The notes beneath the pieces were generated by a model that was given only the letters and a program-made list of their open reading frames with translations, was not told the DNA's origin and did no database searches. Shown here piece by piece: positions 31,561-37,900 of a stretch of 64,000 nucleotides of DNA. Position numbers and translations under genes: made by a program. The DNA is taken from NCBI RefSeq assembly GCF_963921235.1, contig NC_086097.1, forward strand, positions 24,740,001 through 24,804,000. The letters run 5' to 3'. Source of the stretch: Mobula hypostoma (taxonomy: Eukaryota). Within the stretch, counting starts at the first letter, position 1. Every line of letters starts with the position of its first letter.

Positions 31561-34453
31561 ATGTTTTTATTTCAGATTTACAGCACCTGCAGGTTTTTTT
31601 TAAAAAAATACTTTCACCCAAGGAGCGTGGGGCTGAAGTACAACTGGGACTTCGGCAGCAACCTCGCCAGGTAGGATTCCTGTCAGTGGAGAGCTCAGAG
31701 TCAGACACCGTGAGTTCATGTCCCATTCCCAAAATCTGATCACACACAACTCGTCTCCACACCGCAACCCCCAGAGCTTTGTCAAGCAAGAAATTAAACT
31801 GAGCCTCAGTTCTACCCTAAGCAACACACACAAAATGCTGGAGGAGGATGTCGGCTGGATGTAAAGGAAGCCACCACTGGGCTTTGAAGAAGGGCAAAGA
31901 AGTGTACTATAGCAAACTCTCTTCCCTCAGCTAGCACTTCCAAACAAAATTAATACCTTCAAGCTGGTGTTTGTGGAAGGTTGCTAGGTGGAAACTGCTG
32001 GCCTGACAGTGCACTCAAAAGAGTGGCTTGGAGGGGTGCGGTTAGTGCTATGTCAGTGCAGGAGTTTCTCTGTATCTTTGAACATATCACATAGATCATT
32101 ACAGCACATTGCAGACCCTTCAACCCATGATGTGGTACTGAACTATTAACCTACTCTCAATCTAACCCTTCCCTCCTACATAGCCCTCCATTTTTCTATC
32201 AACCATGTACTATCTTGGAAGGTTTCTGGTAGGGACCTAATCCCACCAAGATGTCTCTGAAGCTGTGGAGTGAGGTTTTGACCATAAGACGTAGGAGCAG
32301 AATTAGGTCATCCGGGCCTAATTTTTGGGCTGGGCTGAGTGTGAGGTTCCCTTAGGGCAGGAATTCCCAACCTGGAGTCCACAGACCTTTCGGATAGTGT
32401 AAGGCTCCATGACATAAAAATGGTTGGGAACCCCCTGCCTTTGGGGTTCTCTGCAGAGAGGAGGAAGTAGGCCCTTGGAGATGGGCAGTGCTTTGAGGTA
32501 CAGACCCGAGTTTCACCTATACAGCAGTTCAGGAAGAAAAGCCTCAGCGTTACCAGCAGGAACTGGAGTTACTACTGAAAAATAGGCCACCTGGGAAAAG
32601 AGGTGTGATGCCTTCAAAACTATGAAGAATGCTCAGCTGGAGAGGATAATAACTGAAGAGACATTTGCAATTCACAGACTGAGTGATCTTAGCTGAGATT
32701 AAAACCCAATGTCCTTTGTGGAATTTCCCATCCTCTCCTCCCTCCCTCCGAAAAGACTTGTTGAATGATGCTGTTTAAAACTGTTCCCCTCCTAACTATG
32801 GACCTTCCTCTTTCCAGCTAACCTTTCCCCCTAAACCCTCCCTGTCTCCTAATCCACCCCTACCTCCCTGCTCCAGCTTGCTGTTTTGTTCTTAAACTTT
32901 CCCTAAATGCAACTTACTTTAAGCATGCATTATTAACACTTCAAGCAATCAAAGTGACCCATTCTGTGCTGGTTCCTTTAACTCTGTACCGACGTACATC
33001 CAGAATGCACGCCATTTTTACACACCCTGAGGGGAATTAAAATCTATGTTTTTTTTGTGATGTTATGGGTTTAAAAACAGAAAAGAGTAAATTGCAATAA
33101 ACCAGAGATAATTTCACCTCATTTCATGAGGCCTGGGTGACAGGTAAATATTTGTGACCCTCTTTACTCTGTCTCTGTGCATCTGGCTGTTCATCTTTTT
33201 AAGGTGTGCTGTAGGGGAAAGATTTTACTTTGGTTTATATTTTTCTCAAAACAAGGATTTGTTTCGCCAGTAATATTTTTTATATAAAGCTTTGGGCTTT
33301 TTATATTTTCTTTCAAAAATTGCTACTTCTTTTTGATTCTGCTGAACATTTTATTGGGAAAAAATATTTGTGCTGATAATTTTCTTCTTTTAAATAAAGT
33401 GAATCACAAACCACTTCAAGCCGTGGCAACGCTTAGGGTGGGGTGTAGGTTACTTTCTATCATCTGCACTCTGTTTTCTCCTACCCTTTGTTCATTAGGT
33501 TAACTTGGTTTGCCATGATGGTTCTCCTGGAGGATGCCTTAAAGAGCCCAAGCGGTGGTGGGGGAGATGGAACAGCCTTCTCTCACCCCCTCCTCTACTC
33601 TCCTCTCTGGCTCACCAACCCCCCCCCCCCACATCTACCCAATATCACAGAACGCCTGGTAGTGGGGTATGGCAGATGGCCCATACTCCACTATGCCACT
33701 GGTTCTGGTCTTACGACACTTGGGCCTGCAGTACATCTCCCAACGTGCCTGTGACTGCGGGTTTCCCGTGGGTTTCCTCCGGATGCTCCAGTTCCCACTC
33801 ACAGTCCAAAAACCTACTGGTGGCTAGGTTAATTGGCCATTGTAAATTGTCCCGTGATTAGGTTCAGATTAAATTGGGGGGGTGGGGGTGGGGTTGGGCA
33901 GCTTGGCCCAATGGGTCAGAAGGGCCTATTCTGCACTGTATCTCAATCAAATAAAAAAAATAATATTTTACTCCCTGCTGCCTCTTAATCGCGGGACACA
34001 AACAAAATCCTGTATTTGTTAACACGGGCAGAACCGGAATTTAAAAAGCTTTCTTTGTGCATCTCAGGGGAGTGACGCAGTTGGCATCATCGCCCACCCA
34101 CCCACACCCCCTGTTCCATTCCACCAGGCGGTAAAAAGAAGCCCCCTTTTGCGGATACTTACCAAAACACAGTATATGTGTGCTCTCAATATTTGGAAAT
34201 ACAACATTAACTTCACACAGTTTGAAGTGGTTTGGAGCGGTTGGAAAAGATGATTTATTTAGATTTTTTTCGGGAAAAGCTGTTTAAAGTTTAAAACAAA
34301 TTATATATTTATATATTTATATATGGACTGCATGGTGAAGAAGTTGCAGCTTAGGGTTTGTAAAATGTCAGTGTTAGAGTTATGTTTTTTTCTTTCCATA
34401 GATGGGCATGTATATGCTCATATATTTGTATATCCCCCATCCCTTCCTTACAG

Positions 34454-34563
34454 CTAAAAGCGCTAACGCAGCCAGATCGCTTGGTCCCACCCTGACATGG
34501 ACATGGCAACTTTTATACACATTCACTCCCATCATCTTCATCTCCCCCATAGTGCACTCATAG
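34454..34563 (+). CDS. NRXN3: NRXN3 alternative SS5 (AS5) exon, coding part: (A)KSANAARSLGPTLTWTWQLLYTFTPIIFISPIVHS*, GPI-signal-like tail lacking the transmembrane domain
   Basis: Acceptor CCCATCCCTTCCTTACAG|CT, phase 1 like the terminal-exon acceptors. The translation closely matches the recalled mammalian NRXN3 tail ARSSNAARSLRAALTWTWRLTYTFTPIIFISCVVHS. Confidence 0.88.
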
Positions 34564-35115
34564 GGCAGAACCCGGAAATGTTAAACCTCATCTCCCCCAC
34601 CCTCTCCCTCACCCACCATCCTCCTCTCCTCCACCACCTCCCCCTTTCAGGCAGTGTTCAAAATTGTAGAGTACCAGTCAACCAATTGTCTAATGGAAAA
34701 AAAACAAGAGAGATAAAAGAAAAGATTTAATTTTAAACAATGCTATCTCAACATAAAAGATTAAAAATAAAGGAAGTGCTAGATTTGTAGATATTTAACA
34801 GCAAAACAGACAGAAAAGAAATTGAACTGACACAATGTGCAGTCTTTTTTTTGTAGTTCCTGATCTATTTTAAACAACAAGCAACAAAAAAAAGCAGAGT
34901 CGCCTATTGGTGCAGAATTATTTTCATGTTGTGTGGTGTGAATGTAAATGTGTTGTTGCCTTCCCCTTTGTAATCATATTGTCAGCGAGTTTTATTTTTT
35001 GCTAATGACAAAAAAATTGAGAATAATATAGCAAACGTGTCCAAGAGTATCTTACACAACTTTCTTTTTATAAATTTTTTTCTTCATGCCAAAATCATGC
35101 GGGCAATTTATTGAT
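34564..35115 (+). other. NRXN3: Probable untranslated remainder of the SS5 exon, ending at donor GAT|GTAAGT (35115/35116)
   Basis: Consensus GTAAGT donor; TE-free sequence; several internal acceptor-like sites. Confidence 0.55.
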
Positions 35116-35554
35116 GTAAGTTGACAAAAACTTATTTGGTATCTATTCTTATCTATATGTATATATTGGATATATATGTGTGCATCATATATATACATAT
35201 AAACTTTCTTGGATGTGTTTTAGGCTGTAATGCTTATTAATTAATTTACAAAACGCTATTATCATTTCAAACTTTTTTGGTTTTTTAAACGGGAACGTTT
35301 ATTGATTTTTTTTAACGTGCCAGATTTTTATTTGAGTTGCGCTGCGGCTGTTATATTGCAAGTAAGGGGATCGGTTTTTTTTCTTTTCAGCTCGGTGGCT
35401 GTTGCATCTCTACGTGTGTTGTGATTTCCTCTTTTTTTGAGTCGGGTTCAGTTTTTGAGTGGGGTGTGTGTGTGTTGGCGTGGTGTGCGTGCGCTTGTTT
35501 GTGTGCACAGGCCAAATACCTTGCTAACAGCCTCTCTTTCTTCTTCCGTCCTAG

Positions 35555-36477
35555 GAGGTGAATTAGTTTTCCCAGTAGTGACAGAAGAACCTTTAGACAC
35601 CCCTCCTCTTGGCACCCGTGCCCCTGTCATCACCCTCCTTCCTACCTTCCGCCCCCTTCTCACCATTATTGAAAGCACCAAAGATTCCCTGTCCATGATC
35701 CCTGAGGTTGGGTTGCCTTGCTTGCTGGACCAGGACACCGATGATTGTGATGCTGGCTTGGTGATATCGGGTTATGGCTCAGGGGAGGCGCTTGACTCTG
35801 ACCTACCCCCTACTGATGATGAAGATTTTCACACCACCTTGTCCTTGGTAACAGATAAGACCTTGTCCACATCGGCCTTCGAAGGTGGCTACAAAGCGCA
35901 CGCACCCAAGTGGGAATACAAGGACTTTAGAGCAAACAAACCGCCTGAATCTGGTAGGACAGCCACCACTGACTCTCCCCCTGAGCTGACCAGCTCTTCG
36001 GTCTCCACACCGCCCAGGAAGCTGCCCAAGTTGCCCGCGGGCAAGCTGAATACGCGTGAGCAGAAACCCCAGCCTGGCCTAGTGTTGTTTCCTTTGCCCA
36101 CCGGTTATGAAGTAGACAACACCAAGTTGAAGAGCCCCTTAGTCACCTCACCCATGTTCCGTAATGTGCCCACAGCAAACCCCACCGAGCCGGGAGTACG
36201 AAGGGGCCCCGGGGCGTCGGAAGTGGTGCGCGAGTCCAGCAGCACTACGGGGATGGTCGTGGGAATAGTGGCCGCAGCGGCACTGTGCATCCTCATCCTG
36301 CTCTACGCCATGTACAAGTACCGCAACCGGGACGAAGGCTCGTACCAGGTGGACGAGACGCGGAACTACATCAGCAACTCTGCACAGACCAACGGCACCG
36401 TGGTCAAGGAGAAGCAACAGGGTGCCAAAGGCGGCAGTAAGAAGCACAGAAACAAGGACAAAGAGTACTACGTGTAG
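35555..36477 (+). CDS. NRXN3: Neurexin-3 terminal coding exon (long stalk insert, transmembrane helix, cytoplasmic tail with PDZ-binding EYYV)
   Basis: [107 protein letters not shown] tail. Branch-like GCTAAC and pyrimidine tract precede TAG at 35552-54; stop TAG at 36475-77. Confidence 0.97.
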
Positions 36478-37115
36478 CGAGCGGGGTGGACAAGCTATCC
36501 CGAGAGAAAACAAAAAGCGAACCAGAACAGAGGAGACACAAATAACAGAGAGAGAGAGAGTGAGAGAGAGAGAGATGTAACACGGAGTGGTGCAATCCTG
36601 CAACTCGACATAGATTTTAAACACACACGAAAAAAATAACTCTTTTGGGGAACATTTGGGAAAAAAGACAATCTCCAAACAGCCTGATGGCTGAGAGATA
36701 TGTGATACGTACTGTGATATAATTATAACAGAGTGAAGCTGTTAAGTGCATTAGATAACGCGCGCGTATACAAACACACACACACACACACACACCCATA
36801 CGCGGCCACCATAATTTCCAGAAGCTTTGGATATTGTGGTCCAAGGGATTTCAAACTCTTCAAGACTCCACAGCTTTTTGTCGGTTTTGTACCCTGGATG
36901 CGACTGTTAAGACTTTGTGACATTTCGCATTTTTCTGGAGGTTATCTCATTTGTTGTGAAGGCTGTGCACTTGATTTTCTTTAAACCATCTTTTCTCTTT
37001 GCCGTGTGGAGCATGTGATTGCGACATAATGTACAGACCAAGTCAGTGTCCCGCTGAGCGTGGACCTTGGGAGAGACGGAGAGCTGAGGGAGGTGGGGCG
37101 GCTGGTCGGCTGGTC

Positions 37116-37900
<785 letters not shown>

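Follow-up and report, generated by a model that had tools for sequence, protein, structure and literature searches.

Results

The window, which is the whole 64-kb stretch of DNA that was analyzed, is identified by its sequence as the 3′ end of a myliobatiform ray nrxn3. The exons and splicing elements described below all lie on its + strand. The last exon, exon 25, occupies positions 35555–36477 with its stop codon at 36475–36477, and it encodes the transmembrane helix and the cytoplasmic tail of neurexin-3. It has three in-frame phase-1 acceptors, 25a at 35555, 25b at 35855 and 25c at 36176. The segments that begin at these acceptors measure 300, 321 and 302 nt in the ray and 303, 321 and 302 nt in mouse, indicating that the layout of the exon is conserved to one codon. 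The product of exon 25 matches the Pfam family Syndecan (E 6e-7). It is 89.9–99.7% identical to 12 shark and ray nrxn3 records, the highest value being that for Hemitrygon nrxn3a (305 of 306 residues, 99.7%), and four Mobula records match its last 100 residues without a difference. Just past the stop codon of this exon, a run of GT dinucleotides extends for several hundred bases (~37100–37900). Compared with other sharks and rays, the transmembrane isoform X5 of the skate diverges at the start of its juxtamembrane region and has extra residues inserted in its cytoplasmic tail.

Upstream of exon 25, the interval 34454–34563 was assigned by phase, frame and homology to the coding part of NRXN3 exon 24 (AS5/SS5), comprising a C-terminal tail and its TAG. 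The acceptor is the CAG that ends at 34453 (AG at 34452–34453), and it sits behind a tract in which 15 of 16 bases are pyrimidines. The tract and CAG together (34434–34453) form the last 20 nt of the intron, and these are identical in two genomic loci of teleost type, L001 and L002, that are described below. The tail reading frame is in phase 1: its first two bases, from 34454 on, finish a codon begun in the preceding exon, and another 35 codons follow before the TAG at 34561–34563, giving a coding part of 110 nt and a tail of 36 residues. The first-pass annotation had described a clean phase-1 acceptor followed by a 36-residue frame and a stop, all of which are exact. It had placed them about 1 kb upstream of the transmembrane exon; the distance from the TAG to the first acceptor of that exon is 992 nt, while the transmembrane codons themselves begin near 36250, ~1.7 kb from the tail stop. 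Since the stop-to-stop frame of the tail is merely 53 codons in length, it would be missed by an ORF track. The 36-residue tail has no match in Pfam, and an Rfam search over 33000–35700 returned one chance match far under threshold.

Two further features of the exon deserve mention. An in-frame internal AG at 34470–34471, which would skip the N-A-A region of the tail if used, is a weak candidate acceptor; it is preceded by 6 of 16 pyrimidines and the AG is missing in L001 and L002. In addition, a second (−1) frame is open for ~85 codons over the ray exon (34467–34730) and for ~59 codons in mouse as judged by eye. No phase-1 acceptor leads into this frame over the ray exon, and it may be open because of the codons used in the main frame.

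Exon 23 was not found within the 64-kb window, in which tblastn with skate X6 matched the tail exon alone. As no upstream neurexin exon was found at 1–34328, the intron between exons 23 and 24 must be longer than 34 kb. The spliced join of exon 23 to the tail is seen in two RefSeq models of the little skate, X6 and X7, which are automatic predictions; in both, the tail that follows exon 23 begins with the residue that the ray acceptor predicts. The intron contains numerous disrupted fragments of LINE-like reverse transcriptases and endonucleases, which were labeled by eye. The segment at ~33730–33880, also labeled by eye, is presumably a SINE-like repeat.

Downstream of the TAG, the untranslated remainder of exon 24 is predicted to span 34564–35115 on the basis of a candidate GTAAGT donor at 35116–35121, with an alternative candidate at 35362. 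The + strand of the window has eight GTAAGT hexamers, such that 0.14 are expected per 1100 nt. Use of the donor at 35116 would produce an exon 24 of 662 nt and an intron of 439 nt ahead of 25a; the mouse exon is ~706 nt when its size is derived from construct lengths (1632 minus 926). Possible polyadenylation signals are present in the remainder of the exon at 34760 (ATTAAA) and 34766 (AATAAA), and the latter could terminate a shorter 3′UTR.

We considered whether the tail could be an acceptor-like frame that arose by chance, or the remnant of a dead exon that this ray no longer splices in. The rules of an anatomy filter were written with the ray tail already known, and the filter was applied to 346 acceptor-like sites on both strands of the window. 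It passed 4 of 75 candidate frames, and three of these lie elsewhere in the window and are unrelated. The anatomy of the tail alone is not rare and provides weak evidence against chance, and there is no tail-bearing myliobatiform record among 43 shark and ray records that contain the end of exon 23. It is sequence conservation and homology that rule out a chance origin of the frame. The ray tail aligns with the C-terminus of little skate neurexin 3a X6 with an E value of 5.9e-12 and 33 of 36 identical residues without gaps, and with a lizard fragment at 1.3e-7. The alignment with mammals that the first-pass annotation had described as gap-free is indeed so, with 27 of 36 residues identical to most mammalian tails at the same length and phase. 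When the ray exon was compared by eye with the mouse exon given in Table S4 of PMC9275415, 84 of 110 nt and 25 of 36 residues were identical, with ten synonymous changes over the same 110 nt. With the acceptor, frame and stop intact, and with the last 54 bases of the intron 93–94% identical to those of the teleost-type loci, a chance frame or a dead remnant is extremely improbable.

A broader collection of tails was assembled with a profile built from four of them, which gave 763 matches among 8000 scored candidates, with 120 listed. As determined by a motif filter, the tail is carried by 71 of 173 proteins and is exactly 36 residues long in 58 of the 71. The proteins that bear it are from mammals, turtles, squamates, sturgeon, reedfish and skate as well as from teleosts, where both nrxn3a and nrxn3b are represented. 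The motif filter required W-[TS]-W and the invariance of T-W-T-W among these tails is therefore in part built in; three records missed by the filter retain both W residues, one of them with I in between. Three teleost gene models fuse the first ten tail residues in frame to exon 25a. These models are likely prediction artifacts, though they could encode a transmembrane variant.

At the DNA level, the exon was compared with L001 and L002, the two loci confirmed among 198 pattern matches, with tails that correspond to those in nrxn3b- and nrxn3a-type records of teleosts. The 110 nt align without gaps at 71–75% identity. The differences at the three codon positions are 13/3/12 for L001 and 13/5/14 for L002, with few changes at the second position, and the synonymous changes number 9 and 10, respectively. 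This pattern of divergence identifies itself as the coding type. The ray exon is almost certainly an orthologous and functional NRXN3 exon 24; homology, position and phase all agree with the identity as an NRXN3 SS5/AS5 exon that had been proposed for it initially.

The intron immediately ahead of the acceptor is conserved as well. A block of 125 nt (34329–34453) is 82% identical to L001 (1078–1198) and 85% identical to L002 (1074–1198), and the identity rises to 93–94% over its last 54 nt. The flank upstream of the block is 36–42% identical to the same loci. The block is thus conserved above the coding exon itself (82–85% versus 71–75%). It opens in the ray, L001 and L002 with TGCATG, which we take to be an RBFOX-type site, and a second GCATG is found at 34406 in the ray. 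Indels between the ray block and those of L001 and L002 break the frame. Because genomic ORF matches extend into the intron in differing frames, the block is considered non-coding. Folding of 34329–34563 gave no signal (z 0.36). On sequence grounds, the block is likely a splicing control element. Within it, a second AG behind a pyrimidine tract (34400–34401; 14 of 16 pyrimidines) is a candidate acceptor that would yield an 18-residue frame with a stop. The AG is kept in L001 and L002, but its distance to the main acceptor is 52, 50 and 51 nt in the three sequences, which leaves no common frame, and it was rejected as a conserved coding acceptor. Further upstream, 33158–33198 has a weak 47-nt match to 559–605 of L001 (77%, E 0.01), which may reflect either chance or another conserved element.

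Another candidate splicing element extends across the stop codon, where 34520–34639 contains 13 YCAY motifs in 120 nt. On its + strand, the window has no denser cluster; the p value by dinucleotide shuffle is 0.03, hence the density is partly compositional. The corresponding stretches of L001 and L002 contain 8 and 9 such motifs. YCAY is a Nova-type motif, and PMC10287156 lists Nrxn3 as a Nova-dependent target, with the exon unstated.

The conservation of the intron above that of the exon fits an alternative in which exon 24 acts mostly at the RNA level, its stop codon serving as a switch that reduces transmembrane neurexin-3 through decay or translational silencing, and in which the peptide is secondary. 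The tail stop would lie ~550 nt ahead of the predicted junction between exons 24 and 25a, and mouse exon 25a has been reported to repress translation (PMC9275415). Nevertheless, what has been preserved in the exon is its length, its frame and its residues, with synonymous changes and no indels, and the −1 frame, open as it is in the ray, is unreachable by a phase-1 acceptor. In mouse, according to the same report, no translation-dependent decay of the exon 24 mRNA was observed and the protein is abundant. We consider a predominantly RNA-level function to be very unlikely.

The tail was examined for the properties of a glycosylphosphatidylinositol (GPI) signal, the parts of which are a small-residue site, a polar spacer and an uncharged hydrophobic end (PMC5054108). 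All of these parts are present in the ray tail. The first-pass annotation described the small residues, the polar spacer and the hydrophobic end correctly; a terminal H-S is to be added. The N-A-A at 34465–34473 is predicted from conservation to provide the omega, omega+1 and omega+2 positions, with some uncertainty as to the exact site, and 31 residues follow the N. In a set of 19 distinct homologous tails, which was limited to those of at least 36 residues and so excluded tails of 34 and 35 residues, the N, A and A are found in 18, 19 and 17, respectively. A K takes the place of N at the predicted omega position in the reedfish and in one fugu record, and the attachment site may shift by one or two residues in these cases. 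The uncharged hydrophobic stretch consists of tail residues 14–34 (34492–34554) by Kyte-Doolittle analysis. Its best 11-residue mean is 2.10, at the low end of the range of 2.04–2.88 for the homologous tails (n = 19), and there is no charge beyond omega+9. The ray tail has two more prolines than those of mammals, at positions 12 and 32. At the other end of the protein, the N-terminus of skate X6 and X7 is a hydrophobic leader as judged by eye.

The peptide that follows the predicted omega site is conserved to an unusual degree for such a signal. It is identical at 24 of 31 residues (77%) between the ray and three mammals. In the same comparison, which covers six proteins, the LNS6 domain of the skate is 75–79% identical to those of the same mammals and the stalk ~50%. 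Since GPI signals are described as requiring no particular sequence (PMC2289202), this level of conservation implies an extra constraint on the post-omega peptide. Sequence elements acting in the RNA, cleavage of only part of the product, or a signal that confers specificity are its putative causes; for the last of these, the six-residue spacer signal of CEA sets a precedent for a sequence-specific GPI signal (PMC2064130).

This constraint, being beyond the need of a peptide that is to be discarded, could also mean that the exon is translated in the ray into a product that is secreted or that retains its hydrophobic tail uncleaved, with no GPI anchor. The extra prolines and the low rank of the ray tail in hydrophobicity within the set would agree with this, and secretion was the first proposal for the mammalian form (PMC9275415). 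However, the N-A-A, the spacer, the uncharged hydrophobic end and the length have all been retained, and the mouse and mammalian tail, to which the ray tail is 69–75% identical, is known to be GPI-labeled. Specifically, mouse Nrxn3 exon 24 proteins take up 3H-ethanolamine and the mouse tail anchors a heterologous protein (PMC9275415, Hauser 2022). A secreted or uncleaved product in the ray is therefore unlikely. By sound analogy with mouse, it is likely that the ray tail directs GPI anchoring.

Discussion

We propose that the ray exon at 34454 is orthologous to NRXN3 exon 24 (AS5/SS5) and that its inclusion likely ends the protein before the transmembrane helix in a form that is GPI-anchored as in mouse; we assign this reading a probability of roughly 0.8. 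Exon 23 would be joined to exon 24 from two donors 9 nt apart, as in the RefSeq models of the skate, where X7 equals X6 minus three residues at the end of exon 23. In ray neurons, the YCAY cluster and the conserved block ahead of the acceptor may control inclusion. Use of the donor at 35116 with acceptor 25a would turn exon 25 into 3′UTR, and the resulting neurexin-3 would be truncated past the stalk and before the transmembrane helix. As in mouse, the mRNA would be expected to escape nonsense-mediated decay, the tail to be cut near N-A-A with GPI transamidation, and an ectodomain without a cytoplasmic tail to be displayed presynaptically. By parsimony, this arrangement probably originated before cartilaginous and bony fishes diverged. 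The loss of exon 24 in mouse impairs dendrite-targeting inhibitory synapses (PMC9275415), and the findings on GPI-type neurexin-3 are restated in a review (PMC9812575).

The exon itself is not new, as it is of a known kind and one public annotation of a cartilaginous fish already has it. The first-pass annotation had called it hidden, which does not hold: the little skate RefSeq models neurexin 3a X6 and X7 (XP_055496165.1 and XP_055496166.1) already end in the tail, and conservation to zebrafish has been published (PMC9275415, Fig. S1I). The alignment in that figure includes human, macaque, mouse, zebrafish and, under a garbled label, what is probably garter snake. The suggestion that the exon is missing from automated annotation stands in part. 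It is annotated in the little skate, whereas it is found in only 2 of the 43 shark and ray records with the end of exon 23, both from skate, and in 1 of 14 species, in isoform sets that are incompletely sampled. This suggests that the tail exon is under-annotated in most sharks and rays. With a stop so far ahead of the predicted 24–25a junction, tail transcripts could be treated by annotation pipelines as decay targets. The word "shark" does not occur in the main text of PMC9275415, and our literature searches found no paper on exon 24 in cartilaginous fish.

The presence of the exon in two batoid orders and in bony vertebrates, at the same position, phase and length, points by parsimony to an origin in the jawed-vertebrate ancestor, and this likely age is the one that had been put forward from the ray sequence at the outset. 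Searches of limited sensitivity (four candidates in a tail-only word search) found no tail in sharks, chimaeras, cyclostomes, NRXN1 or NRXN2. The GPI-type neurexin-3 proteoform is thereby moved one node deeper than in the published mouse-to-zebrafish alignment, a modest step that a specialist would expect. The ray sequence is useful as a distant natural variant showing which intron bases, in the block led by TGCATG, and which tail residues persist. The kept bases and residues offer targets for the control of AS5 inclusion and for the constraint on the predicted discarded peptide. One could go further and suppose both that exon 24, the 125-nt block and the YCAY motifs have formed a neuronal splicing module since the first jawed vertebrates and that the cut-off W-x-W peptide is a sequence-specific signal for anchor type or for presynaptic sorting at inhibitory terminals. 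We regard this combined proposal as a rather doubtful conjecture.

The ray exon may be compared with several known systems. Mouse and mammalian Nrxn3 exon 24 likewise has a 110-nt coding part in phase 1 that encodes 36 residues with N-A-A-R and a hydrophobic end, and it precedes an exon 25 with acceptors a, b and c. The ray tail differs from those of most mammals at 9 of 36 residues and from that of mouse at 11 by eye; the R-A-A of the mammalian spacer is G-P-T in the ray, and a mammalian C near the end is P. The alternative exon 23 donor at 9 nt is found in records of mammals, teleosts and skate. The AS5-type tails of teleosts, sturgeon and reedfish share the length and motif of the ray tail, with 17–26 of 36 residues identical and their hydrophobic half more diverged, and at L001 and L002 the TGCATG opens the upstream intron block just as in the ray. 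The closest counterparts are skate X6 and X7, from a different batoid order, which have the same C-terminal tail with three substitutions; they are automatic models whose names carry no GPI or AS5 label. With GPI attachment signals in general (PMC5054108; PMC2289202), the ray tail has its C-terminal position in common. Such signals, as described there, need no fixed sequence, whereas the one in ray and mammals has been conserved as strongly as the LNS6 domain.
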